A DNA stretch of 64,000 nt from Nitrospirota bacterium. GTDB taxonomy: Bacteria; Nitrospirota; UBA9217. Below, one piece after another: positions 1,111 to 45,806 of this stretch; position 1 is the stretch's first letter; each line of letters begins with the position of its first letter. The position numbers were made by a program, and so were the translations under genes. The notes beneath the pieces were generated by a model, which was given only the letters and a program-made list of their open reading frames with translations, had not been told where the DNA came from and searched no databases. Where the stretch lies: contig CAWBNQ010000003.1 in assembly GCA_963790205.1 (NCBI GenBank), positions 928,001-992,000 of the forward strand. Direction: 5' to 3'.

Positions 1111-2349
1111 TTACGCAACGCGGGCGCGAATGCTGTCCGTGATGCGATAGCCCCAGGACCATACGCCGGTGTCCGGGCAGGGCGACAGCCGGGAATCCCT
1201 TCCTATCACATACCGGTTCCCCCGCCAGACCACCGTTGAACTCAAAAGCGGCACGAACCACAGCATTCCGATGATAATGTCCTTGACCGGAACAAGGAAA
1301 TAAACGAGGGGCGATTGTTTGTGAAGATATGTGCGCGCTGCCGAGGCTTCGATCGCTCTTCCGAGCAGGGAATCGCCAAGGACCTTTATGAGTCCTGTGA
1401 GGGCCGCAAAGGAGAGCGTTTCGCGCGACGGGCCCTTGAGCAGGACCGGCAAGGTTGCCATGAATACCGGATTGGCAAGCAGTTCGGACAGATATTTCGC
1501 TCCGCCGATCTTCCACCGGAGCTTGCCCCATCGCGTGTGGCGGTTCAAAAATCGCCTGATGCCCCAGTACTCATTGACATTGCTGACCAGGTAGCTTGAA
1601 AGAACGACTTTTTTCCCGCTCCGCTGCATCTCCCTGCCGATGATGAAATCCTCGGCCAGGATGTCCTTGAAGGCGGCCAGCCCTCCCAGCTTCTCCAGGT
1701 CTTCTTTTTTCATGAGCATAGACTTCCCGATGACGCAGGGCATGCCCAGGAAGCGGTCGAGAAAGCTGACGCTCCCGAGGATGAAGGAATTTAAGTGAAG
1801 ATTTTCGAGGGTGGCGCCGATGCTGCGGCCGCCTGCGCCGCGGATCACATTGCTGACGAGGCCGATTGCCGGGTCGTGCGCATGGCGCGTGATCTCGCTC
1901 AGATAGTTTTCATCGACCATGACGTTGCTGTCGCTGATCAGAACAAAGGGATGGCGGGCCTTCCGGTATGCGGGTATGAGGTTGTTCACCTTGGGGTTGA
2001 GCCCGACCGCGCACCGCTCCACAACGATGGTAATGTTTTTGTCGGGAAACCTGTCCTGTACCTTTTTAGCCACTTTGTACGCGGGGTCGTTATGGTCCTG
2101 GAGGGAGAACAGGATCTCATATTCAGGATAATTCTGGGTGCAGAAGCTCGCGAGGTTGTCGAAAAGGTTGTCGTCAAGGCCCCGTAACGGCTTGAGGATC
2201 GAGACGGGCGGAAGTGCGGGTCCCCGGGCCGGAATAAAATCGGGGGATTTCCGTTTTTTCGCGATGAGCGACCAGGCTGCTCCCGCCTGGAGCAGGTAGA
2301 GCACGGTCCCCACGATCGAGATCGCCGCGCATATGCCGAAGAGTGTCAT
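1111..2349 (-). CDS. Ceramide-glucosyltransferase-like GT21/HpnI-family glycosyltransferase
   Basis: N-terminal TM, ILKPLRG, NPKVNNL, ISDSN, LAEDF, RHTRW, C-terminal TMs and VVWRG. Confidence 0.85.
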   Translation of the reverse strand: MTLFGICAAISIVGTVLYLLQAGAAWSLIAKKRKSPDFIPARGPALPPVSILKPLRGLDDNLFDNLASFCTQNYPEYEILFSLQDHNDPAYKVAKKVQDRFPDKNITIVVERCAVGLNPKVNNLIPAYRKARHPFVLISDSNVMVDENYLSEITRHAHDPAIGLVSNVIRGAGGRSIGATLENLHLNSFILGSVSFLDRFLGMPCVIGKSMLMKKEDLEKLGGLAAFKDILAEDFIIGREMQRSGKKVVLSSYLVSNVNEYWGIRRFLNRHTRWGKLRWKIGGAKYLSELLANPVFMATLPVLLKGPSRETLSFAALTGLIKVLGDSLLGRAIEASAARTYLHKQSPLVYFLVPVKDIIIGMLWFVPLLSSTVVWRGNRYVIGRDSRLSPCPDTGVWSWGYRITDSIRARVA

Positions 2350-2399
2350 GTGATCCCTCCTTTTTGGTGATGCCTGTTTGTCGAAGTATTCGTCATGCT

Positions 2400-3092
2400 C
2401 TAATTCCTGAAGAGTGTGATGGCGACGCCCTTATTGTGTCTGATGCACTGCTTCACCGAGTCGACGTTCTTTTCGCAGTTGAGCAGCGTTTTCCATGAGT
2501 AGAGATGCCGGGCCTGGTGAAAATCGCTGTTTGCGATGTAGGGATATTTTTTCAGGCTGATCACGTTGAATACATCGTCCCGGTTCGCTATTTCCCAGGC
2601 GTCGATGTATTTCGCGTATTTGTCCCGGTTGTTCCAGAGAAAGAGCGTGTCCTTATTCACGAGGTCGGGCGTGTGATGGGGATGGCAGGCAACGGTCAGG
2701 GCATTTTGATTCTTTGCCTCGAGAAAAATTTCTTCGTAGTCCATGCAGGCGGGAATGAATTCTTTGATGTCGAGAAGAAGGATATGGGCTGATTTATTCT
2801 TGGAGAGATAGTTTTTGCTGATTTCCACGCCCGGGATCACGAGCATCTCATATTTTTCCCAGGCCCGTTTTGCTTCCTCTTTGATGGAGTTGAAATATTC
2901 GTCAAAATTATCCCCCCGGACCGACAGATTGAACTGCCTGGCGAATTTGCCGATCGAGTTGTCGCCGCTCACGACATGGTCCGTAACGGCGATGACATCG
3001 AATCCGGCCTGGCCGAAAAGATCGACGGTGTCCCTCATCTCAAGCGAGCCGTCCGAGAAATTTGTGTGGATATGAAAGTCACACAGCATCAT
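2400..3092 (-). CDS. PHP-domain phosphoesterase
   Basis: DFHIHT..SDG, TDH, GVE, HPH, NSDFH metal ligands. Confidence 0.85.
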   Translation of the reverse strand: MMLCDFHIHTNFSDGSLEMRDTVDLFGQAGFDVIAVTDHVVSGDNSIGKFARQFNLSVRGDNFDEYFNSIKEEAKRAWEKYEMLVIPGVEISKNYLSKNKSAHILLLDIKEFIPACMDYEEIFLEAKNQNALTVACHPHHTPDLVNKDTLFLWNNRDKYAKYIDAWEIANRDDVFNVISLKKYPYIANSDFHQARHLYSWKTLLNCEKNVDSVKQCIRHNKGVAITLFRN

Positions 3093-3115
3093 TGACGGGA
3101 ATCATACGTTTTTTC

Positions 3116-3159
3116 TATTACGGGAGTATTACGGGAATATTAAGTTTCTGTTACGGAAA
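3116..3159 (-). promoter_or_regulatory. Pho-box-like 4x11-bp direct repeat; -10 TATGAT at 3101-3106
   Basis: + strand tattacgggag tattacgggaa tattaagtttc tgttacggaaa, 9 nt from the -10. Confidence 0.85.
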
Positions 3160-3308: not shown

Positions 3309-4703
3309 TTAGAACTTGAAGGTCAGGACGCCCTGGGCGCCCATGACCTTATCGGCGCTCGTATTCACGCCGGCAACAGCCGTGGGGGAGTCATAGGCCT
3401 CGCCGGGCTTGAAGTAGCCGAGGGTCCAGTTCCAGGAGAGGTTGTCATACATCTGCCAATTGACCTTCACGTCCACCTCGGCCCCGAGCTTTCTCGATGT
3501 GGCAGGCGTTGCGCCGTCCGACAATACCGCTTTGTTGAGCGCTACCGCCTGGACCGCCTGGAGATACCACAGGTCAACGCCGACGTTCAGGCCCTTGGCT
3601 GCGGCCACCATCGCGCCGACGTTGAGCGCCGTGGTGTTGGCAAAGCCCGTGTGCGTTTTTCCGGCGGCCGTGCTGACCTTGTACTCATACAGAAAAGAGT
3701 AGTGGGGATCGGCATCCATGAAGTTTACGAATTGACTATAATCATTCTGGTTCAGTTTTGCCCCGGTGCCGCGTCCAGCGGTGAAGTTGATGGTGGCGGG
3801 GTCCATCGCCACTTTACCCTCGATCACGACCTGGTTGCCCTTGAACTTTGCGTCGCCGCTCGGTCCGCCGAGCGATGGATTCGTCACCAGGTTCGCATCC
3901 TTCGCTTTGCCGGCCTGGAGGTCGGCTTCGGCCTTGAGGCCGAGAGGGCCGAACTTGCCGTTCAAGTTCAGTCCGAGGTTGTATATCTGCGTTTCGGGAG
4001 TTGCGGTTGACGGGATGGGGTTCTTGGCGAGCCCTATCGCGTTCTTACGGTCTTTCACCAACGAAAGGTCCGCGCCGACCGTCACGGCATCATTCAGCTT
4101 CAGCACATCGAGGAGCGCATAGGCATCGACGTCGTCTGCCTTACCGGGGTCTCCTTCGCCGACCTTAATGTCCGCAAATGCCGCAGTGTTGCCGCCGGTC
4201 ACATTCGCGACCACCCAGGCATCATCGCCGTACTTCATGTTGCGCAGGAACCAGCCGTTGCCGAGCTGCAGGAGCTGATGGCCGGCGTTCACATTGATCG
4301 GGAGGCCGGGAAGATTGAAGTTGATCCACGCCTCGCGGACGTCGAGCGATACCGGTTTTGCCGATCCCGTGCCGTTATTCCCGCCCCAGTCTTTTGTCGT
4401 TGTCTGGCCGTTGCCCTGCGGCGCCTCGAGCCTGCCCCAGTCGTCCCAGTCGTTCTCGATGGAGATCCTTCCCTTTACATCGTTTCCGGCCTTTGCGTCC
4501 ACCGTGAGCCGGACCCTCTCCTGGGTGTCTCTTGTCGTGCCGTTGTCGCCGGTAAAATCACTGGGATCGGCCTTCGTGTTCATGAAGTCCCTGCTCCGGA
4601 TGTCCAGGCTGCCGCTTACGGTCACGTCCGCGGCAAAGGCCGCGGCGCTGAAACACGTCAGGGCCGCAACTGAGAGTACCACAACTAACTTCTTCATCAT
4701 CAT
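3309..4703 (-). CDS. Outer-membrane beta-barrel porin
   Basis: Signal peptide (AAAFA/AD), amphipathic beta strands, REAW motif, C-terminal ...GVLTFKF. Confidence 0.8.
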   Translation of the reverse strand: MMMKKLVVVLSVAALTCFSAAAFAADVTVSGSLDIRSRDFMNTKADPSDFTGDNGTTRDTQERVRLTVDAKAGNDVKGRISIENDWDDWGRLEAPQGNGQTTTKDWGGNNGTGSAKPVSLDVREAWINFNLPGLPINVNAGHQLLQLGNGWFLRNMKYGDDAWVVANVTGGNTAAFADIKVGEGDPGKADDVDAYALLDVLKLNDAVTVGADLSLVKDRKNAIGLAKNPIPSTATPETQIYNLGLNLNGKFGPLGLKAEADLQAGKAKDANLVTNPSLGGPSGDAKFKGNQVVIEGKVAMDPATINFTAGRGTGAKLNQNDYSQFVNFMDADPHYSFLYEYKVSTAAGKTHTGFANTTALNVGAMVAAAKGLNVGVDLWYLQAVQAVALNKAVLSDGATPATSRKLGAEVDVKVNWQMYDNLSWNWTLGYFKPGEAYDSPTAVAGVNTSADKVMGAQGVLTFKF

Positions 4704-4943: not shown

Positions 4944-5042
4944 TCATACCCCCTGAATGATAAGAACAAGGAAGAGTATTCCGATGAGCAGCCCGGCGAT
5001 ATACAGGAAATATTCAATTGCTTTCAGGGTTATCTTTTTCAT
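4944..5042 (-). CDS. 32-aa single-pass membrane protein
   Basis: MKKITLKAIEYFLYIAGLLIGILFLVLIIQGV*, RBS AAGGAG; below ORF-track cutoff. Confidence 0.55.
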   Translation of the reverse strand: MKKITLKAIEYFLYIAGLLIGILFLVLIIQGV

Positions 5043-5109
5043 GCGAGAGTAGCTCCTTATCATGAATCAGTCAGCGCTCCTTTGCCGAAGCCGTCGGCAT
5101 CCGGACTCC

Positions 5110-6501
5110 TCATATCGGCAACAGTTTCAGATTAAATCCCCGCTCGATAAGCCAGGTAAAACCCAGCATGAAAATAACCAACGACACTCCGAAGGTCACT
5201 TTTCTGAATTCGATCTTATTTTTCAAAAGGTGCAAGACAGGCAGCATGATCAGGAATATTATTACTTGTCCGAGCTCCACGCCCAGGTTGAAGGAAACTA
5301 CCGATACGAGGAGGTTTGCTTTTCCGGCAATCAACTCCTGGAGAACGCTCGCGAAGCCGAAGCCGTGGACCAGCCCGAAGACAAAAGTCACGAGCCAGCG
5401 ATAATTCACTTTTTTCTTGAACAGGTTTTCAAGTGCGACGAAACAAATGGAAAAAGCTATTACCGATTCCACCACCCTGGAGTTCAAACTGACGACCTGC
5501 ATTGCCGCCAGGAGCAGGGTAATGCTATGCGCTATGGTAAACGCGGTTATTATCTTCAGAACTTCCTTGATAGACAGGCCGATCACAATGAGCGCCAGCA
5601 GAAATGTTATATGATCATATCCTGTCAGAATATGCTCGATGCCGAGCACTATGAATTCTCTTATATTTGCCCATAGAGACCTTTTTGCAGGGTTAAGTGA
5701 TAGAGAACCGTTCTCATTACCTTCGGGAGGGGGTTTGCTCGCAGAATCTGCCGATGGGGTGAACATCTCAGTAGGCAAGTTTTTCATGCCGCCGTTCAGC
5801 GCTTTTGTTTTTTTATTCAGCGGAACTCTTGCAGTATTTTTTCGTACTGCGGTATCCTTAATGCTGTCTGAACTGCCGCTTACAACGGTATTTCCGGTTT
5901 TGTGCCCTTCAGCAGGCACAGATGCAGGACCGTTAACGGAGAATTCCCATACCGGCGCGTTATGATCAAAAGTGGTCTGCATCGCAGGCGGGGAAAAATC
6001 AAAAACTTTTTGCAGGGCGTCTCCGGTAGCATCGGACAAATATCCATAGGCGAGGTTCACGTGCGCATTGTTCGTCTCTTCAAACAATAAGGTGTAATCG
6101 ATCTTGACCGGGTTTACAGGGTCATTAAAGCTGATATCATCTGCTGACAGCCATATGGTATATATGTTGCCGTTTCTGACTACCTTGTTTACCTTTACAG
6201 GATACGTTTTGCCATCGACTGTTATGGAAAGTTTTTTGTCTATATAAGGCTGCAGGATATCGGCTCCAATGTGCTGCAGTTGCTCATCGGAAAGTGCATC
6301 AGGGTCATAATGTCCTTCCTTTATTCCTTTTATTTCGGCCAATAAGGACGGGCCAAGATCTATGTTGCCGATAATAGTGTTTTTGCCAAAACACCACCTG
6401 GAGCCGCCCATGGGCAGGTTGTGAGCAGAAACAGGAACAGTGATTAAAAGGAATAAACCTGTTATGACGAATAAAAATAATTTTCTGAATGGCATAAACA
6501 C
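5110..6501 (-). CDS. HupE/UreJ-family membrane protein with N-terminal periplasmic domain
   Basis: Signal ..VSA/H, GIEHILTGYDH, AFTIAHSITL, FGLVHGFGFA, FNLGVELGQ. Confidence 0.85.
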   Translation of the reverse strand: MFMPFRKLFLFVITGLFLLITVPVSAHNLPMGGSRWCFGKNTIIGNIDLGPSLLAEIKGIKEGHYDPDALSDEQLQHIGADILQPYIDKKLSITVDGKTYPVKVNKVVRNGNIYTIWLSADDISFNDPVNPVKIDYTLLFEETNNAHVNLAYGYLSDATGDALQKVFDFSPPAMQTTFDHNAPVWEFSVNGPASVPAEGHKTGNTVVSGSSDSIKDTAVRKNTARVPLNKKTKALNGGMKNLPTEMFTPSADSASKPPPEGNENGSLSLNPAKRSLWANIREFIVLGIEHILTGYDHITFLLALIVIGLSIKEVLKIITAFTIAHSITLLLAAMQVVSLNSRVVESVIAFSICFVALENLFKKKVNYRWLVTFVFGLVHGFGFASVLQELIAGKANLLVSVVSFNLGVELGQVIIFLIMLPVLHLLKNKIEFRKVTFGVSLVIFMLGFTWLIERGFNLKLLPI

Positions 6502-6523
6502 AAAAAGGCCTCCTTTTCAGCTC

Positions 6524-7141
6524 CTAAGAGTCGATTCCCGAATTCAGGACACGGCCTTCCTCGGATGATAACGAAACGTGCTTCTCTTTGGCCCGCAGGA
6601 ACACGATCAGGCTGGATACGGCCAGTAAAAAGCTTAACATACTCATAGGCGGCAAGCCTCCATTCCACTTCTGGACATTCAGCGTATCCTTGTAGCCCAT
6701 CGCAAAAAGATGGCCGGCGACGAAGGTACACGCCAGGACCGTCAGCGTCCGTCGAACGGCCGGCTTTATTCCGGTCGCGTGCAGGCGCCAGAAACAATAG
6801 ACAGCCAGCACTCCCATAAGCAGCACCAGTTCTCCGGTCAGGCTCATCTTATCGCCGTCAAAGAAATTGGCGTAATAACCCTGCGAGAGGATCCCGAGCG
6901 ACAGAAAGATGTGGACGAACACCAGCTGCGAACACGCGTTGGTCCAGAAACGGACCTTGTCCTGCTCCGCGTGCATGAAGCCGAGGGACGCCATAAGCAG
7001 CGACTCTACCGCTGTCATGCATATCGCTTTGTTCATTATATAGACCGGCAGGTGAATGAGAGCAACATGGCCGAACCCGGCATACCGAATGACCGCGTAC
7101 ACAAGCGTAAACAGAAATGCTGTCAGAAATTGTTTGACCAT
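6524..7141 (-). CDS. Ferric-reductase-like (STEAP/MsrQ-type) transmembrane protein
   Basis: About 6 TMs; LPVYIMNKA, TM His in FVHIFLS and AGHLFAMG, C-terminal LPP. Confidence 0.6.
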   Translation of the reverse strand: MVKQFLTAFLFTLVYAVIRYAGFGHVALIHLPVYIMNKAICMTAVESLLMASLGFMHAEQDKVRFWTNACSQLVFVHIFLSLGILSQGYYANFFDGDKMSLTGELVLLMGVLAVYCFWRLHATGIKPAVRRTLTVLACTFVAGHLFAMGYKDTLNVQKWNGGLPPMSMLSFLLAVSSLIVFLRAKEKHVSLSSEEGRVLNSGIDS

Positions 7142-7144
7142 TCT

Positions 7145-8332
7145 TCAGTCCTCCTTGGTTTGTCGTTTTTCTAAGATCTCCGGTGACGCCGCCGCGTCCA
7201 CGAACGGGCACTCCGGATCGGAAGCGTAGAAGTCGCCGTCGACGAACCCGGCCACGGCGCGGCAGCCTCCCTTGCAGATCTCGAGATAATCGCACGACCG
7301 GCAGGGCTCCGGGGCCCGGTCGGTCCAACTGCGCAAGCGAGAGAGATGTTCCGAACCGCTCCACAGCCGGGGCAGTTTGAAAATGCTCTCCTCACCGGAT
7401 AAGAAGGAACAGCCCGCAAACCTGCCGTCCGAGCGGACCCCCAGCAGGACGTTGCCGGCCTCGCAGCCGTAGGCTGAGAACTGTTCCATCATATTTTTGT
7501 CCGGCCTGTGCCAGCAGAACATCGGGACAAAGGAGCAGTCGATCTTGGCCGGGACTCCGTATTCCATGGAGAGGCGCCTGATCGTCGGATAGAATTCCCG
7601 GTTCTGCAGCGGCGTTAATCGCCTTTCGAAATAGTCCAGCATTCCCCGTCCCGAGGGCTTCAGCCTCAGGAACTCCACATCGGCAAGTCTCCGCTCCCCG
7701 GCAAAGACAAACACCCCGGGCAAATGATCGAAGCTCTGACGGGTCACGACACAGTTCAGACCGACGTTGACGCCCGCCTTCAGAAGCATATCCATACCCC
7801 GTATTGCCGCTGCGAGAGCAGCGGAACTCCGCCCGGCTACCTCGAAACCCGCAGTGCCATCGATGCTGACGTTGACCTGGCCGAAAATTCGGCACTTTGC
7901 AGCGGTCTCTCTGGTCATCAGGAGCCCGTTGGTGGTCAGGTTCGGAACGATGCCGCGGGCGCGCACATAAGCGGCCAACTCAAAAAAGTCGGGGCGCTCC
8001 AGCGCCTCTCCGCCTCCCAGTGCCATATGGAACACACCCATCCCGGCCAGGAGGTCGACGGCCTTGCGAAACTCTTCAGACGACAGCTCTCGCGCATCTC
8101 TTTCCCCTGAATCCATATAGCAGTGCCCGCACCGGAGGGAACAGGCATTGGTCACCGAAAAATGGACTTCCAGCGGAGCGGAGAGAAGAGCTGTTTCCGG
8201 CATTTCCCACAACGGGCTGTGCTCATGGACCAGGCGGCGCATAAAGTCCCGGTCCACGTGCACCAGCATCGGAGGATTTTCCAGGGCCAGGATCCCTCCA
8301 AACGATTCAAACCGATACTTCATAACGCTCAT
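7145..8332 (-). CDS. Radical SAM/SPASM-domain protein (MftC/PqqE-like)
   Basis: CSLRCGHC, GGGE, TTNG, SIDG; SPASM CEAG..GC..CRSC....CKGGC..CP. Confidence 0.92.
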   Translation of the reverse strand: MSVMKYRFESFGGILALENPPMLVHVDRDFMRRLVHEHSPLWEMPETALLSAPLEVHFSVTNACSLRCGHCYMDSGERDARELSSEEFRKAVDLLAGMGVFHMALGGGEALERPDFFELAAYVRARGIVPNLTTNGLLMTRETAAKCRIFGQVNVSIDGTAGFEVAGRSSAALAAAIRGMDMLLKAGVNVGLNCVVTRQSFDHLPGVFVFAGERRLADVEFLRLKPSGRGMLDYFERRLTPLQNREFYPTIRRLSMEYGVPAKIDCSFVPMFCWHRPDKNMMEQFSAYGCEAGNVLLGVRSDGRFAGCSFLSGEESIFKLPRLWSGSEHLSRLRSWTDRAPEPCRSCDYLEICKGGCRAVAGFVDGDFYASDPECPFVDAAASPEILEKRQTKED

Positions 8333-8544
8333 CCCTTCTCTTCCCCCTGACTGAGTACGGGCATTTCTTTTAATTCTTCCGGTCGCCCGTGCTCATGGAC
8401 CTTTGCCGCGCTAAGGACCGCAGCAAGAGTGTTGAAAAGGACCGTCATGGCCGCTCCAGCGGTGAAGAAGGCTATTACATCTACGCCGATACTGCTTGAG
8501 TTCGGGTTGTAGCCGGTCTTGATCTTCAGAATTCGTCCTTTCAT
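8329..8544 (-). CDS. 71-aa peptide with GYNPNSSS motif and TM helix; candidate radical SAM substrate
   Basis: Purine-rich RBS; stop overlaps the rSAM ATG by 4 nt; basic N-terminus, hydrophobic centre. Confidence 0.75.
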   Translation of the reverse strand: MKGRILKIKTGYNPNSSSIGVDVIAFFTAGAAMTVLFNTLAAVLSAAKVHEHGRPEELKEMPVLSQGEEKG

Positions 8545-8635
8545 TTCCCTGCCTTCCTGCTTGGTTTTCTCTTTGTCACGACAGCTTTGCAGATCCTTTC
8601 CTTGTTCTCTCCTGGATAAAGTGTCCGCTGGTCCA

Positions 8636-9763
8636 TTACGGAAGCCTCCCTTCTTCGGCCCAGCGCTGATACTGGGCAGAAAAGACGTCTATGATCTGAG
8701 GTCCGTTCGGCTGGTGGATAATGAAGAGGTAGAAGACGGCCGTAGTCATCAACAGGGTGAGGACAGGACTGAGCCAGCGCAGAGCTCGAGGCCGGGTCTG
8801 CCAGAACTCCCCCCTTGTCAGAAGCAACAGCCAGAAGAGGGTTGTCAGGTTGAGGCCGGCCGCGATGTAGACCACAGTGTCAGGGATTATGATTGGATAG
8901 CCCGTGGTCTCCATGGAATAGAAAGTCGGCATTCTGATTGCGGTCAGCAGCACCCAGAGGAGAACCAATATCAGAAAAGTCCTGATCGAGGCCTGGGTAA
9001 GCCGCTTCCAGGGTTTCATCAGCAGGGCGGCAGCCCAGAGCATGACTACGACTCCCCACGCGACCCATCCCCAGGCCGATGTTTCTTTCCAGTAGCGGCT
9101 GGCCGTTTCGTAGGCCTCCTGGTCGCTTGTGGAGAGTTTTTTCCCGCCGTTCCCTGAAAGGGCCTCAAAGGCGAGATAGCTTTGCCTGCGCTTGTCCATG
9201 CGAGCATAGGCATATCCCAGTTCCCTCTGGACCTCTGCCTTCAAAAGAAAATCAGGGTGGTCCTTCAGCAACGCTTCGAACTTCTTCACCATGATTTCAT
9301 CGCCCTGATCGGCGAACAGAATCGCCTGATAGGTCTTGAAGGCCGCCTCCTGCTGTATCAGTTTTTCGAGGGAGGCCAGCTTCTCCTGGTAAAAGGAAAC
9401 CTGCCGGGGGGAGGCGTATTTCTCCAGATATTTCCGATCCCACTTGATCGCCTTCTTTATATCGACAATGTTGTCTTCATACAGGGTCCCCAGCATCTGC
9501 ACGGCGTAGCGGGCCGCCTCGCTTTCAGGATGCTTCCCGGCGATTTCCAGGTCGATGGCAGCTGCGTCGGCATAGCGGCCGTTGATATAGGCATGCTGGG
9601 CCTTTTGCCTCAGCTCGTTCACTGCCGGGCTGTCCTGGGCCGCAAATCCGGCGATCGGCAGCAAGAACAGGCCCCCAAAGAGCGTAAGAATAAGCAATGG
9701 AATGAGCTTGGTGCGCCTGATGGCGACAAGCTTTAGCACCAGCTTGTCCGTTATGGTTGCCAT
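8636..9763 (-). CDS. TPR-like periplasmic domain with C-terminal 4-TM anchor
   Basis: Signal peptide, helical repeats (AQHAYINGRYADA, ELGYAYARM), hydrophobic C-terminus; RBS GGAGG. Confidence 0.75.
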   Translation of the reverse strand: MATITDKLVLKLVAIRRTKLIPLLILTLFGGLFLLPIAGFAAQDSPAVNELRQKAQHAYINGRYADAAAIDLEIAGKHPESEAARYAVQMLGTLYEDNIVDIKKAIKWDRKYLEKYASPRQVSFYQEKLASLEKLIQQEAAFKTYQAILFADQGDEIMVKKFEALLKDHPDFLLKAEVQRELGYAYARMDKRRQSYLAFEALSGNGGKKLSTSDQEAYETASRYWKETSAWGWVAWGVVVMLWAAALLMKPWKRLTQASIRTFLILVLLWVLLTAIRMPTFYSMETTGYPIIIPDTVVYIAAGLNLTTLFWLLLLTRGEFWQTRPRALRWLSPVLTLLMTTAVFYLFIIHQPNGPQIIDVFSAQYQRWAEEGRLP

Positions 9764-9807
9764 TTATAGCCTCCGCCATTTTTAGCACTACATGATACTC
9801 CCTTATT

Positions 9808-9851
9808 TATTACGTTAATATTACATGGATGTTATATTTTCGTTACAATGG
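9808..9851 (-). promoter_or_regulatory. Pho-box-like 4x11-bp repeat; -10 TATCAT at 9792-9797
   Basis: tattacgttaa tattacatgga tgttatatttt cgttacaatgg. Confidence 0.8.
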
Positions 9852-9927: not shown

Positions 9928-10115
9928 CTATTCCTGCAATGTCACAGGGGCAAAAGGTAAGGCTGGTATTATTCGAATTAATGCTTTCAGTGGTCCGATT
10001 CATGCTGAACTGCAGCGGAATGACGATCTCGTCACCGGCTGCCAGGCCGTTGGCCGTAGCCCTTATCATCGGTTCGCCATTGTTCGAGCCGGTTGCATTG
10101 AGGCCGATGTTCTGG
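9928..10115 (-). pseudogene. Diverged, out-of-frame duplicate of the 3' end of the metallophosphatase gene
   Basis: Encodes QNIGLNATGSNNGEPMIR...TF(A)PVTLQE* versus in-frame QNTGLITDVTLVNATGSNNGEPMIR...TFTPVVLQE. Confidence 0.8.
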
Positions 10116-11801
10116 TTCCTGCAATACCACAGGCGTAAAGGTGATTTCGGTGTTATTCGGGTTGCTGAACGAGAGCGGAACGACAATCGAGTCCCCCGCG
10201 TCCAACCCGGTATGCTTAACCCTTATCATCGGTTCGCCATTATTCGAACCGGTCGCATTGACCAGCGTGACGTCCGTGATGAGGCCGGTGTTCTGGGCGA
10301 TCTTTGAGACAAGTTGCGGGGTGGTGGTGCTGTATTCGTTATCTGCGCTGCCGATTCCCTGGAGGTTGACAATACCGTCCAGGACAACGTGGATATTACC
10401 GGTAAGAGCTGGGCCGTTATTCGTGATCTCCAGGTTGCATCTGTACAGCTTGGTCGTAGGATTGTAGGTCATGTGGGTGGTTTTTACGCCGACCTGCGAT
10501 GAGACGTCGGTGAAGTGATTGAGAACGATCGTCTCGATCGGTGAAAGGGTCAGCGCCGACGACGGCTGAATCGCCGTTGTGCTCGCGTTGTTGACCTGGT
10601 AGGCGGTCATGGTGAGGGTCTTTCCTTCTACGTCAAAGGTCATGAACTCCATGGCCGGCCAGGCGGTGATGACGTGCGGAAAATTGCCCATATTGGTCAT
10701 GTCGGGCTGATAAACAGGCGCGCCGCCGCCGCCGCTGGTGATGTGCGGGACATTCAGGGCAATCTGGTCTCCGTTTGCCTGGGCGAGGGTATAAGCCCCG
10801 GTGCGGGCATAGTTGTGGCTGTGGCCGGCATAGACCAGGTCCACATTATACTGGGTAATGAGAGGTTCAAGTGCCCTCACTTTGAGGTTGTCGCCGTCTT
10901 TGCCTGCGGAATACGACGGCTCGTGGTACACGAGTATCTTCCACGGCTTGGTGGTCGTGGCGAGGTCGTTGACAAGCCAGTTGTACTGGTCGGAGCCGGG
11001 AGCAAAGCTTGAGTACTCGTCAACAACGGTGAAGTGGACCGGGCCGTAATCGAAGGACCAGTAGAGGTTATTGTAATAAGGATTGCCGCTGGCATCTGTT
11101 GTAGGAGCAGCTGTTTTAGAAGTCATATTCGTGTACGGAAAGGGAAAGTACTTCGGGAAAGTGGCGCTATACCCTGAAGCGTTATCATGGTTGCCCTTGC
11201 ACCCGTCGATGGGCGAATTCGCCGTGAACGTGACGATGTCCGTCTTGGTCGGGTCGAACCACTGGGAGGTCCAGTAGCTTTCGCCGTCGGTGCTTACCCA
11301 GTCACCGTTGTGAATAGTAAGGCGCTGATAATCCTCGTTGCCGGGCTGTGAATAGAAGGAGCGCATCGCCTGCATGACGTTATCCAGGGCAAACGGTTGG
11401 CTTCTTGAGTCTCCCATGGCGAGGAACCGTATCGAAGTGGCATTGTCCTCGGGCGCGGTAATGAACGATCCGGTGCCGTAGACGGCGCTGCTGGTCTGGT
11501 CAGCCACATGGTAGTAGTATTTCGTATTCGGCGTCAGTCCGGTGATCGTGTACCCGTGCTGCCGGTCGCCGAACTCGGGCGCCGTTACCGTCCCCATGCT
11601 GAAGATCGTGTCGGTGCCCCAGCTGACGATGTTCGTCTCGCCTGCGGTGTCGTCCTGCCAGACCACCTCCATCTGTGTATTCTGCCCCGGGTAGATCAGG
11701 TAGGGATGTTTCAGAATGCCGGCGAAAGCCGCCGTGCTGAACACGGCAAAGGCCAGCACAAAAACTAAACCGGTCAAAGCTTTTTTCGTCATGGTATTCA
11801 T
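10032..11801 (-). CDS. Secreted purple-acid-phosphatase-like metallophosphoesterase with FN3-like N-domain
   Basis: Start MNTMTKK after GGAG; signal AAFA/G; GLTPNTKYYY; GDSR, NGDWV, GNHD, YHEP, GHSH. Confidence 0.88.
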   Translation of the reverse strand: MNTMTKKALTGLVFVLAFAVFSTAAFAGILKHPYLIYPGQNTQMEVVWQDDTAGETNIVSWGTDTIFSMGTVTAPEFGDRQHGYTITGLTPNTKYYYHVADQTSSAVYGTGSFITAPEDNATSIRFLAMGDSRSQPFALDNVMQAMRSFYSQPGNEDYQRLTIHNGDWVSTDGESYWTSQWFDPTKTDIVTFTANSPIDGCKGNHDNASGYSATFPKYFPFPYTNMTSKTAAPTTDASGNPYYNNLYWSFDYGPVHFTVVDEYSSFAPGSDQYNWLVNDLATTTKPWKILVYHEPSYSAGKDGDNLKVRALEPLITQYNVDLVYAGHSHNYARTGAYTLAQANGDQIALNVPHITSGGGGAPVYQPDMTNMGNFPHVITAWPAMEFMTFDVEGKTLTMTAYQVNNASTTAIQPSSALTLSPIETIVLNHFTDVSSQVGVKTTHMTYNPTTKLYRCNLEITNNGPALTGNIHVVLDGIVNLQGIGSADNEYSTTTPQLVSKIAQNTGLITDVTLVNATGSNNGEPMIRVKHTGLDAGDSIVVPLSFSNPNNTEITFTPVVLQEPEHRPQCNRLEQWRTDDKGYGQRPGSR

Positions 11802-11958: not shown

Positions 11959-12627
11959 TTACGGGTTTGGCGACTCGCTATCCAGGTTCGCCTCGCTCAT
12001 GTCCGTCCCGTCCGCGTTCGCCCCACTCATGTTCGCCTTGCTCAAATCCGCCCCGCTCAAGTTAGCCTTTCTCAAGTCCGCCCCGTTGAGGTTAGCCTTG
12101 CTCAGGTTCGCCTTGCTCAGGTCCGCCCCGCTCAAGTTAGCCTTGCTCAAGTTCGCCTTGCTCAGGTCCGCCTTGGTCAGGTCCGCCCTGCTCAGGTTCG
12201 CTTTGCTCAAGTTCGCCTTATTCAGTTTTGACCTGCTCAGATCCACCCCGCTCAGGTCTTTCTCTTCCAAATTAATGCCGTTCAGGTCTGCCCCATTCAG
12301 ATCCGCCCCGCTCAGGTTCGCCCCGCTCAGATCCGTCCCGACCAGGTTCGCCCCGCCCAGGTCCGTCTCAGTCAGGTTCGCCCCGCTCAAGTCTGCCCCG
12401 CTTAGGTTCGCCCCGTTCAGGTTCGCCCCGCTCAAATCCGCCCCGTTCAGGTCCCGCCCCTCCAGGTTCATCCCGTTCAGGTCCACCCCACTCAGGTCAC
12501 ACTGGGGACATTGATTGGTTGCCCGTAATCTATCCAAATCAGCCTGCTCGAAGCCATACACGACGCTGCCCTTCAGAAACACGCAAAGGATGATTATCCC
12601 CAGCAGTGCTGCGGTCCTTCTTTTCAT
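11959..12627 (-). CDS. Secreted pentapeptide-repeat protein
   Basis: Signal peptide, CPQC, many A[DN]LSx repeats. Confidence 0.92.
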   Translation of the reverse strand: MKRRTAALLGIIILCVFLKGSVVYGFEQADLDRLRATNQCPQCDLSGVDLNGMNLEGRDLNGADLSGANLNGANLSGADLSGANLTETDLGGANLVGTDLSGANLSGADLNGADLNGINLEEKDLSGVDLSRSKLNKANLSKANLSRADLTKADLSKANLSKANLSGADLSKANLSKANLNGADLRKANLSGADLSKANMSGANADGTDMSEANLDSESPNP

Positions 12628-12799
12628 TTTTCTGTCTCCTTTTCACAAAGGATCTTTAGTCGCATATCCATACGGAAAAATTCCATTGGGCGGTTGGAAG
12701 TAACACTCGTACGTTCGAGTACTTCGAGACAAAGAAAAAAATGCGTTTTCTGATGACGCGGGATCATCCATTCGCTTCGAGTCGAGGATAGAGGAGAGG

Positions 12800-12843
12800 T
12801 ATTACGCGAGTGTTACGGAAATATTAAGTTTCCGTTACAATGC
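12800..12843 (-). promoter_or_regulatory. Pho-box-like 4x11-bp repeat; -10 TATCCT at 12785-12790
   Basis: tattacgcgag tgttacggaaa tattaagtttc cgttacaatgc. Confidence 0.85.
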
Positions 12844-28116: not shown

Positions 28117-28158
28117 TATCAAGTTCCTCAATTCTTTCTCAGAATGATAGAGGAGCCA

Positions 28159-28202
28159 CATGACATATATGTTACGGAAATATTACATTTCGGTTAAATG
28201 TT
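28159..28202 (-). promoter_or_regulatory. Pho-box-like 4x11-bp repeat; -10 TATCAT at 28144-28149
   Basis: catgacatata tgttacggaaa tattacatttc ggttaaatgtt. Confidence 0.75.
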
Positions 28203-43225: not shown

Positions 43226-43380
43226 GTTAGAAGTTTGAAGGGTGAAGTTTGAAGTCTGGTGAACAAGTAGAAGCTAGAAGTTTGAAGAGTGAAGTTTGAA
43301 TCCATGCGGAATCGGTTCCGGAATAGAAGTTAGAAGTTTTCGGTTATTTCATCCATCTCACTTCTCACTTCAAACTTCCA
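43226..43380. repeat. Heptamer array (GAAGTTT-like) with complementary arm (CTCACTT/CAAACTT)
   Basis: gaagttt gaagggt gaagttt ... gaagcta gaagttt gaagagt gaagttt ... ctcactt ctcactt caaactt. Confidence 0.85.
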
Positions 43381-45127
43381 TAAAAATCCTCACCCTCGTC
43401 CCTTTGCCCGGCGTGCTCTCTATCTGCATGTCCCAGCCGTGCGCCTTCACCAGATGCTTCACGATCGCCAGGCCGAGGCCCGTGCCGCCCATGCTTCGCG
43501 ACCGGCCGGGGTCTACGCGGTAGAACCGTTCGCCGATCCGCGGCAGGTGCTTCTGCCTGATGCCGATGCCGGTGTCTTCCACGAATAAATAAGTCGTACC
43601 GTTCTCCTCGGCATCGCCGAACTTCACCCCGCCTTTTTCCGTGAACTTTATCGCGTTGTCAACGAGGTTGGTCAGGATCTGGATAAGCCGATCCCGGTCC
43701 GCTGCAACGGTCCGCGGCGTCGGGAGTATCTGCGCCTCTATCGTCAGGTTCTTTTCAGCGGCCTTGCTGCGCAACAGCGTAAGGACATGGTCGGCGACCT
43801 CCTGGAGATCGACGGGCGACTTTTCCACCGTTATCACGCCCAGTTCGATCTTCGAGATGGTCATAAGATCGTCAATGAGGCTGTTGATCCGTTCGCTGTT
43901 CGCCTTGATGGTCCGCAGGAAGGTGACGGCATGGTCGCGGTCCTCAAGGGCGCCCTCGAGCAGGGTCTCGGCAAATCCGGTGATAGCCGTGATCGGCGTC
44001 TTGAGCTCATGGGAGATGTTGGCGACGAAATCTTTTCTCGTTTGTTCAAGTTTTTTGAGTTGCGTGATGTCGTGGAAGATGGCGACGAACCCCGACAGTT
44101 CGCGTTCGTTGTAAAAGAGCGGGGAGACCTGGACCACGCAGTATTGCTCCAGGGGGGAGTCGAGCTTTATCTCGGCGCTCGCGCTCTTCTCCTCCCGCCG
44201 GACCGCTTCCATCAGCGCCAGGAACTCGCTGTTCCGGACGACCTCGATGAACGGCCTTCCCTGGAGCGCGGTCTCGCCGAACAGGTTCCTGGCCGCCCGG
44301 CTCGACAGACGGACCGTATTGTTTGCATCGATTATGAAGAGGGCGTCGGGAATGCTCCTGAGGACCGTGTTCAGCCGATTGTGCTCCTCCTCATGGGCTG
44401 CGATGCTGTTCTTCAGTTCCCCGGACATGGCGTTGAGGCTTTCGGCGATCTCATCGAACTCGCCCGCCCGCTCAAGGAACAGTTTTCTGCCGACTTCCCC
44501 CCGTGCAAGCGCTTTGGAAAAGTCCCTTATCTGCCGCGTCAATCTTCGGATCCGTTCTATTTGCCACAGGGAGAAGACGCCTGTCGCGAGCAGGATGAGC
44601 GTGACGACAAGGATGATCCTGACCCTGAGCAGGTTGATCGCCGCATCGACGTCCTTGAGCGGCTTGCTTAAACGGATAAAGCCTTTGGAGTGCGCTCCGC
44701 CGTCGACGTGTATCGCCACGTAGAGGAAATCGTACTTCAGGGTATCGCTGAAACGGATTGCCATGCCGGTCCCGTTCAGCGCGGCCTGCTGTATCTCCTG
44801 ACGATGGCCGTGGTTCTCCATGCGGGTCGAATCGGTTTCCGAGTCCCCGAGGACCCTTCCGTCGGGCGCGATGACCGTGACCCTTGCACCGGTTGTTTCC
44901 TTGAGCTGTCTGCAAAGGCCGTCGAGCGGGGACGATGCCTCGAATGGTATGTCGGCGGAGATGAGTTTTGCCTGGACCGTGAGATTGTCGTGCAGGTCGT
45001 TGATGTAATTTTCCCTGACCGCATCGGTAATGGAGAGCTCGATAATGATCACCGCCAGGAGCAGAATGAGCGAATAGGTGATGAATATCCGTCGGAAGAT
45101 GCCGCGCTTCACGGAATTATTCGACAT
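43370..45127 (-). CDS. phoR: Phosphate regulon sensor histidine kinase
   Basis: TM, ENH..R.EI periplasmic domain, TM, HAMP, PAS, DFVANISHELKTP, NL.DNA.K, RFYRVD..RSR..GGTGLGL. Confidence 0.9.
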   Translation of the reverse strand: MSNNSVKRGIFRRIFITYSLILLLAVIIIELSITDAVRENYINDLHDNLTVQAKLISADIPFEASSPLDGLCRQLKETTGARVTVIAPDGRVLGDSETDSTRMENHGHRQEIQQAALNGTGMAIRFSDTLKYDFLYVAIHVDGGAHSKGFIRLSKPLKDVDAAINLLRVRIILVVTLILLATGVFSLWQIERIRRLTRQIRDFSKALARGEVGRKLFLERAGEFDEIAESLNAMSGELKNSIAAHEEEHNRLNTVLRSIPDALFIIDANNTVRLSSRAARNLFGETALQGRPFIEVVRNSEFLALMEAVRREEKSASAEIKLDSPLEQYCVVQVSPLFYNERELSGFVAIFHDITQLKKLEQTRKDFVANISHELKTPITAITGFAETLLEGALEDRDHAVTFLRTIKANSERINSLIDDLMTISKIELGVITVEKSPVDLQEVADHVLTLLRSKAAEKNLTIEAQILPTPRTVAADRDRLIQILTNLVDNAIKFTEKGGVKFGDAEENGTTYLFVEDTGIGIRQKHLPRIGERFYRVDPGRSRSMGGTGLGLAIVKHLVKAHGWDMQIESTPGKGTRVRIFMEV

Positions 45128-45806
45128 AATACCCCACGCCCCGTCTTGTTTTGATATGCACGGGGTCCGATGGATCGTCTTCAATTTGCGTGCGCAATCT
45201 TCTGATGTGCACGTCCACGGTCCTCGGCTCGACGAAGGACTCGTCCTTCCATACGGCATCGAGGAGTTGATCGCGGCTGAAGACCCTGCCTTTTCTCTCA
45301 ACGAGAAACAGGAGCAGTTTGAACTCCGTCGCGCTGAGATGCACGGAGGTGTCCTTCTTGGTCACGGTGAAGGTCTCCCGGTCGATGCGGAGCTCCCCGA
45401 GGCGGATGACCTTTTCTTTGGCCGCGAGCGCTCCCGTGCGCCGCAGGACCGTGTTCACCCGGGCGGCAAGTTCCTTCGGGCTGAAGGGTTTGGTCATGTA
45501 GTCGTCGGCGCCGGTCTCCAGGCCGCGTATCTTGTCCGCGACCTCGCCTTTGGCGGTCAGCATGATGATGGGAATGGTCTCTGTTCTCGGATTGCTCCTG
45601 AGCATGCGGCAGAGCTCAACGCCCTGGATGCCGGGGAGCATAAGGTCAAGGATGATGAGGTTATACCCGTCCTTGCGGACCTTCTCGAGCGCATCCTCCC
45701 CGGTGGAGGCTGAGGAGACTTTAAAGCCTTCTTTCCTGAGATTGTAGGAAACAAGCTCCACCAGATCGGGTTCGTCGTCTACAACGAGTATTTTTATCGT
45801 TTCCAT
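45117..45806 (-). CDS. phoB: Phosphate regulon response regulator (OmpR/PhoB family)
   Basis: VDDE, LDLMLP, MLTAK, GADDY.TKPFS, RTVDVHIRRLR; coupled to phoR. Confidence 0.88.
   Translation of the reverse strand: METIKILVVDDEPDLVELVSYNLRKEGFKVSSASTGEDALEKVRKDGYNLIILDLMLPGIQGVELCRMLRSNPRTETIPIIMLTAKGEVADKIRGLETGADDYMTKPFSPKELAARVNTVLRRTGALAAKEKVIRLGELRIDRETFTVTKKDTSVHLSATEFKLLLFLVERKGRVFSRDQLLDAVWKDESFVEPRTVDVHIRRLRTQIEDDPSDPVHIKTRRGVGYYVE

Follow-up and report, generated by a model that had tools for sequence, protein, structure and literature searches.

An NPNSSS membrane peptide encoded with a radical SAM/SPASM enzyme and a TPR-membrane protein in Nitrospirota and other bacterial phyla

We analyzed a stretch of 64,000 nucleotides from a Nitrospirota bacterium (assembly GCA_963790205.1, contig CAWBNQ010000003.1, positions 928,001 to 992,000; hereafter the window), in which the gene of a membrane peptide with the motif NPNSSS adjoins that of a radical S-adenosylmethionine (SAM)/SPASM enzyme. 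A first-pass annotation had described six co-oriented open reading frames (ORFs) below a Pho-type box, and all six were confirmed on the minus strand. The translational coupling that it proposed between peptide and enzyme was also found, the stop codon of the former and the start codon of the latter overlapping as ATGA, and neither the ORF list nor scans with the family libraries gave a peptidase or an ABC exporter in the unit, as had been stated. The features are as follows (aa, amino acids).

12797-12840, minus strand: Pho-type operator, upstream of the pentapeptide-phosphoesterase genes
11959-12627, minus strand: pentapeptide-repeat protein, exported; accessory
10032-11801, minus strand: FN3 + metallophosphoesterase, exported, purple-acid-phosphatase-like; start codon inferred from the ribosome site
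9805-9848, minus strand: Pho-type operator, four repeats with an 11-bp period, upstream of the TPR gene
8636-9763, minus strand: TPR-membrane protein, 375 aa; exported TPR-like domain, then 3-4 membrane helices; core partner
8329-8544, minus strand: NPNSSS peptide, 71 aa; leader, GYNPNSSSIG, helix, tail
7145-8332, minus strand: radical SAM/SPASM enzyme, 395 aa; MftC-like; coupled to the peptide
6524-7141, minus strand: STEAP1-like membrane protein, 205 aa; no NADPH domain; accessory
5110-6501, minus strand: HupE/UreJ_2 membrane protein with an exported N-terminal domain (PF13795, E 6.8e-47); accessory to type I
4944-5042, minus strand: hydrophobic microprotein, 32 aa; plausible gene, not a conserved member

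The conserved core of this system consists of the TPR-membrane protein, the NPNSSS peptide and the radical SAM/SPASM enzyme, and occurs in many phyla; HupE and the STEAP-fold protein are lineage add-ons. Three architectures were distinguished. Type I (Nitrospirota, Geobacter, Acidobacteriota and some deltaproteobacteria) has the order phosphoesterase-TPR-peptide-enzyme-[STEAP]-HupE-[TonB system]. Type II (Planctomycetota, Bacteroidota, Fibrobacterota and others) comprises an FN3-TPR-membrane protein, a helical protein, peptide 1, TlpA, a phosphoesterase-thioredoxin-DsbD-like fusion (the DsbD-like assignment was made by eye), peptide 2, TPR and the enzyme. Type III (myxobacteria) is TPR-peptide-enzyme, sometimes scattered. 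Neighbours were tallied for non-redundant peptides flanked on either side by 2.5 kb or more, shorter contexts being dropped, and we counted TPR-membrane genes within 1.5 kb, enzymes within 2.5 kb and metallophosphoesterases within 4.5 kb.

Type I (n = 32): TPR 32, enzyme 31, phosphoesterase 29, HupE 27, STEAP 12
Other Ser-type (n = 55): TPR 45, enzyme 33, phosphoesterase 39, HupE 0, STEAP 0
Cys-type (n = 19): TPR 6, enzyme 19, phosphoesterase 8, HupE 0, STEAP 0

The claim that the six genes form one fixed system was not supported, since HupE and STEAP are missing at all 74 peptide loci tallied outside type I. The three-gene core stood; the unit extends upstream to the metallophosphoesterase and often to the pentapeptide gene (12 loci including the window), and the microprotein, matched at only one other locus among all those fetched, drops out. 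Two microprotein homologs lie in another Nitrospirota locus (L025; 1697-1762 and 11851-11946), both approximately 450 bases or less downstream of Pho-type arrays. The system is real, and it is unnamed in the literature and libraries searched, as the annotation had expected: no library family or paper naming it was found. The peptide, the TPR protein and the STEAP-like protein had no match in Pfam, NCBIfam or PHROG and none by sequence in the PDB. Our literature search, which lay outside subscription papers and bioRxiv supplements, found no description of the system, although atlases of peptides that are made by ribosomes and modified after translation (RiPPs) could list the peptides.

The peptide consists of a basic beta-strand-like leader, the segment GYNPNSSSIG (residues 11-20), a membrane helix at approximately residues 21-44 and a variable tail. 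Its family is far beyond chance: a word search gave 297 relatives and a full scan with a hidden Markov model gave 528 clusters at 50% identity. The exact string NPNSSS was present in 266 of 268 proteins examined, preceded by Tyr or Phe in 265 of 266 close relatives, and the peptide occurs in 8 of 401 genomes of Nitrospirota, the phylum of the window. A fusion of the peptide to larger proteins was considered and rejected, the lone match (331 aa) resembling read-through.

In the enzyme, CxxxCxxC and eight further Cys were invariant in all 16 aligned relatives. An AlphaFold model (predicted local distance difference test score, pLDDT, 73) matched PqqE, SuiB and anSME and has a SPASM fold; residues 1-52 were unresolved (pLDDT under 50). 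For each of the best 25 of 61 NCBIfam models, the score lay below the cut-off; MftC (TIGR03962) came first with 158.5 vs 265 bits, the PqqE model TIGR02109 reached 92 vs 381 bits, and plasmid matches were headed by annotated MftC (31-33% identity). Like mycofactocin MftA/MftB/MftC, its best-scoring named relative, the system couples a short peptide gene to the enzyme gene, whereas the C-terminal Val-Tyr core, MftB and a peptidase are absent from the unit and the peptide has a membrane helix. PqqE was the top PDB match by sequence and fold; unlike PqqA/D/E, however, the system has no PqqD, no pqqBC and no Glu-x3-Tyr core. Comparison for a RiPP recognition element (RRE) gave no profile match to small MftB and PqqD sets, with residues 1-52 poorly modelled; an R-x-E-x-F-G-G motif invariant in the enzyme resembles MftB by eye.

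Several comparisons indicate that the peptide is very probably the substrate of the enzyme, as the annotation had supposed, and its concern that the peptide might not be conserved beside homologs of the enzyme was answered by the neighbourhoods, which show co-occurrence. In addition to the tally above, an enzyme-first search found the motif within 1.5 kb at 17 of 30 loci (reversed control, 1). Among 19 genomes chosen for an enzyme without NPNSSS nearby, all nine with the highest-scoring enzymes carried a GxNPNSSS peptide elsewhere, and the 10 with lower-scoring enzymes did not. This lower-scoring group pairs with a variant peptide, G-[RH]-[SAG]-[PA]-N-C-S, at 9 of 11 loci examined. In genomes lacking the enzyme, the true peptide was found in 0 of 20, four pattern matches being translated to other residues.

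The variant peptide points to the target residue. In a myxobacterial branch, Ser16, which follows Asn, is replaced by Cys, and enzyme positions 102, 220 and 267 vary with this exchange. The enzymes of Cys-type peptides all have DCA, Gln220 and a residue other than His at position 102, and the myxobacterial Ser-type enzymes have DCS with Glu220 in 13 of 13 cases and His102 in 12 of 13; the enzyme was found in 52 of the 301 myxobacterial genomes sampled. Applied to 18 later loci, the rule placed DCA beside Cys peptides (14/14) and DCS beside Ser peptides (3/3), with one locus unclassifiable, and an orphan DCA enzyme has its Cys peptide in trans. Because the Ser/Cys exchange goes with changes in the enzyme, Ser16 (codon 8497-8499 in the window) is the probable site of modification on sequence grounds. 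The features that persist across the variants are (N)-[S/C]-S and the flanking glycines; one Cys-type peptide (L459) has Ser in place of Asn.

After modification, the peptide would rather likely stay in the membrane with the TPR protein, and the retention proposed by the annotation was supported. Since the tail side of the helix is the more positive (166 of 209 peptides in 10-residue windows), the sequences suggest a head-out, tail-in orientation, weakened by the basic leader. Homology links the TPR-membrane proteins of type I to those of type II (probability 98.5), type II loci with two peptides carry two such proteins, and in one case a TPR-membrane protein bears a fused, degenerate FN3 domain; the Atlas gave no usable match for the TPR membrane part. 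Of the complex predictions that the annotation had recommended, that of the peptide with the TPR protein was positive but weak (0.49 vs 0.00 for the best control), with at least 71% of contacts shared between runs and a partner pLDDT of at least 52. Solved pairs reach this mark in 116 of 157 cases and mismatched ones in 2 of 215, but only 18 of the 157 do so at 0.60 or under, as do both mismatches.

Because the same repeat precedes pstS and psiE, the Pho-type box is taken as real, and the Pho control claimed earlier is supported for this lineage. A first matrix, seeded only on the TPR-gene array and a porin array, gave 14 three-repeat matches in the 4.3-Mb genome, 13 of them within a single 37-kb island, to which the leaders of pstS and psiE belong. 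Because a refined matrix was trained on these sites, its matches are in part circular; with block-shuffled genomes there were 2 and 2 matches at a lower threshold. Each of seven arrays precedes a gene or operon: the TPR gene, the pentapeptide-phosphoesterase genes, the porin, the PHP/glycosyltransferase operon, pstSCAB-phoU, psiE and a small gene. Among type I loci, a coding-strand array was present in 13 of 31 (three had one on the other strand), and 11 of these 13 sit 71-99 bases before the TPR start. A PhoB/PhoR-like pair, just under the cut-offs, is encoded at 43370-45806 of the window.

Other arrays accompany genes outside the unit. The box at 3113-3156 precedes genes for a PHP hydrolase, an HpnI-like glycosyltransferase, a probable acyltransferase of 616 aa and an LPG-synthase-like protein (window 1111-3092 and G000:C3 926.1-929.0 kb), an operon that likely serves phosphorus-free lipid remodelling, judging from the proteins encoded. 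The outer-membrane porin at 3309-4703 (DESULF_POR1-like, below the cut-off) has its own Pho-type box and a 60% identical paralog on contig C6, and the array at 28156-28199 precedes two ORFs, an IS1/IS256-like zinc-finger ORF of 117 aa and another of 123 aa.

The link to a phosphorus-scavenging enzyme that the annotation had foreseen is borne out by the metallophosphoesterase encoded next door. In the window, its FN3 and metallophosphoesterase domains retain D, GD, GNH, H and GHxH, and the position of the purple Tyr ligand reads GDWVS instead of GDxxY. Part of its C-terminal segment is duplicated downstream in another frame (10032-10140). In type II, the FN3-metallophosphoesterases (L036:8692-10983 and its relatives) carry GDND and SWH instead of GNH and GHxH, and are fusions with a CxxC thioredoxin and a membrane domain resembling DsbD.

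The STEAP-like reductase proposed earlier was supported as to its fold: the top six Foldseek matches of the model were STEAP1/2/4, structural comparison gave Z 17.3 (root-mean-square deviation 3.0, 176 residues aligned), and His77 and His144, a candidate bis-His heme site, are invariant in 11 of 11 sequences. The protein consists of the membrane part only, with no NADPH/FAD domain, like STEAP1. In the Atlas it fell in unnamed clusters, with a lead of 0.85 to a cluster that is 19% PF01794. Both larger architectures add a possible path by which reducing equivalents could reach the periplasmic side, the STEAP1-like domain in type I and TlpA with the thioredoxin fusion in type II, which suggests a role in maturation or retention of the phosphoesterase. 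No direct evidence was obtained for the annotation's view of the peptide as a metal ligand or cofactor, which is not supported.

Further genes recur around the core. At L032:15527-16108, in the culturable Geomesophilobacter sediminis, and at 10 other type I loci, an NF038129 PEP-CTERM protein directly follows the phosphoesterase, and TonB-dependent receptors with ExbB/ExbD/TonB often lie downstream of HupE. Specific to type II loci are an exported helical protein without a name (L036:7149-7979, F30) and a DUF2950-like protein (L047:10719-11336, F35). Cassette genes are in pieces in several long-read assemblies (L015, L019, L025 and L028), probably through sequencing frameshifts.

Taken together, the core lies under a Pho-type box beside the gene of the phosphatase-like enzyme, and we tentatively propose that Ser16 is converted to formylglycine and that the peptide, held by the TPR protein, activates or retains this phosphatase. 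In the cytoplasm, the basic leader would dock on the enzyme, the 5'-deoxyadenosyl radical would take the C-beta hydrogen of the Ser or Cys after Asn, and the auxiliary clusters would accept an electron to leave an aldehyde, 2 Da lighter than Ser. No protease would act; the peptide would insert head-out, and its modified head would meet the periplasmic TPR domain. In the weakest step, the reactive head and the lineage-specific suppliers of reductant or metal (STEAP and HupE; TlpA and the DsbD-like domain in type II) would serve maturation or tethering of the phosphoesterase; that the module serves this enzyme at all has, in our judgement, somewhat less than an even chance.

Formylglycine ranks first among the possible products, still short of probable, by analogy with anSME, which forms formylglycine from either Ser or Cys by way of the C-beta hydrogen and whose auxiliary clusters are ligated entirely by Cys (PMC8326336). 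The enzyme shares with anSME/AtsB the SPASM fold, the eight auxiliary Cys, which would fit two such clusters if ligation follows the sequence, and a proposed substrate site of Ser or Cys. It differs in being only approximately 18% identical and in having a 71-aa membrane peptide as its probable substrate, with no sulfatase among the scanned neighbour genes; when the two were aligned directly, only the last Cys cluster was covered. The loss of His102 with a thiol substrate would fit a base that is needed only for a hydroxyl.

A number of observations weigh against this proposal. The closest named enzymes are MftC and PqqE, not anSME; the position that we take to be the catalytic Asp of anSME appears by eye to be Ser309; and the peptide lacks the sulfatase motif C/S-x-P-x-R. 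The Cys-type enzymes form one clade (support 96), so that the covariation represents a single event and not 23. The leader is also basic, and just 44% of peptides have more K/R after the helix than before (15-residue windows). For Cys-type peptides, an adjacent TPR gene was detected in only 6 of 19 cases, and it was missed at 10 of 55 Ser-type peptides, although the profiles may miss divergent copies. The phosphoesterase is missing near 11 of 19 Cys-type and 16 of 55 Ser-type peptides, as well as at many type III loci, its type II forms have altered metal motifs, and a coding-strand Pho array was found in 0 of 19 type II loci.

In an alternative to which we give roughly one chance in three, the modified peptide and TPR protein would form a general envelope module for signalling or metal handling that has no relation to the phosphoesterase, with Pho control and the phosphatase genes as local recruits. 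Many myxobacterial loci are TPR-peptide-enzyme only, beside a response regulator, type II lacks the box and the genes can be scattered. However, phosphoesterase genes turn up again in each of the three architectures, the distant Cys clade included, and the degenerate FN3 domain noted above is carried by a TPR-membrane protein.

Ranked second as to product, and rather unlikely, is a small ring at the same site: an ether or thioether from Ser16/Cys to the C-alpha of Asn15 or Ser17, or an oxazole-type ring from the (thio)aldehyde. It would account for the Ser/Cys interchange, the near-invariant Asn and the following Ser. Precedents are the Thr-Gln C-alpha ether of the TQQ peptide (PMC8326336) and the thio-oxazole formed by SbtM through a thioaldehyde (PMC13638132); TqqB and SbtM likewise act on hydroxyl or thiol side chains, on peptides of another type, and the SbtM model scored 48.8 of 350 on a type II relative. 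A labile ring may even trigger backbone cleavage that removes the leader, which would account for the absence of a protease. However, the Cys-type peptide with Ser instead of Asn counts against such a ring, and PMC8326336 describes fully ligated auxiliary clusters for C-C cyclases and anSME, not for thioether enzymes.

The remaining alternatives are improbable to increasing degrees. Epimerisation, a known SPASM chemistry, or another mass-silent change inside the Ser run would suit the rigid motif and small residues, but leaves the enzyme changes that accompany Ser/Cys unexplained. Still less probable is an aromatic crosslink from Tyr12 to Asn15 or Pro14, on the model of cyclophane or dynobactin-like crosslinks, or an MftC-like tyrosine chemistry: the Tyr/Phe of close relatives and the rank of MftC favour it, but the residue preceding Asn13 varies, being Tyr, Phe, Leu, Met or Val in Ser-type and Arg, His, Ala or Pro in Cys-type peptides. 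Because this position is so variable, the Tyr of YNPNSSS is dispensable and probably not the site, and aromatic chemistry is unlikely. Least probable is an Ahb/NirJ-like enzyme for a small molecule with the peptide merely a structural subunit: NirJ/Ahb models score 112-131 bits and no RRE could be shown, but these scores are far under the cut-offs of 500-650, the peptide co-occurrence and covariation are strict, and trees place the enzyme in a clade separate from the NirJ/Ahb-like rows tested; clustering with such a family, which the annotation had named as refuting its reading, was not seen among these rows.

A similar tag occurs in phages. A phage motif, used as a search pattern, gave at least 154 loci with proteins that start with K-h-[RK]-x-[GD]-[FY]-x-x-N-S-S-S, up to approximately ten per locus. 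Counts of co-occurrence cover tag-carrying records only: a phrog_7293 enzyme was present in 24 of 28 such records searched and in all 11 that were at least 90% complete. In phage Miller (KM236237.1, L222), two hypothetical genes (1592-2059 and 5470-5982) begin with the tag approximately 20 kb from the radical SAM gene, and genes of both kinds are conserved in approximately 175 related cultured phages; the counts for cultured phages (173 and 175 records) represent essentially one lineage and are not independent. The phrog_7293 enzymes and phrog_7397-type proteins share with the bacterial system the NSSS tag, here at the protein start, and enzyme motifs; they differ in that the tagged proteins are soluble and 40-320 aa long and the SPASM end is shorter. 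With a profile of 10 phage enzymes, all 16 family members scored 61-85 bits, ahead of 14 other SPASM proteins at 40 bits or less, whereas the profile of the bacterial family ranks MftC above the phage enzymes. Trees join phage and family enzymes with support of 93, 95 and 87, the alternative not being rejected (approximately unbiased test, P = 0.18). These results are suggestive of a relationship between the two groups. Readings of the motif as a glycyl-radical or prepilin signal were rejected: the phage tag can have Asp in place of Gly, and Cys-type peptides lack a hydrophobic residue after Gly.

A more speculative and, as a whole, doubtful extension is that N-[S/C]-S is a portable, genetically encoded tag for one radical SAM/SPASM lineage, which would install formylglycine outside sulfatases, on a bacterial membrane peptide to activate or covalently hold periplasmic phosphatases and on many unrelated small proteins of large phages, including cultured ones of the RB43/KP15 type. 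If it works as proposed, the system would represent a widespread group of radical SAM substrates that remain in the membrane as subunits instead of being released, would connect this group with phosphate scavenging by bacteria of soils and sediments, and would provide a first approach to a phage protein family that is abundant and unexplained, with the Ser/Cys pair naming the residue to look at.

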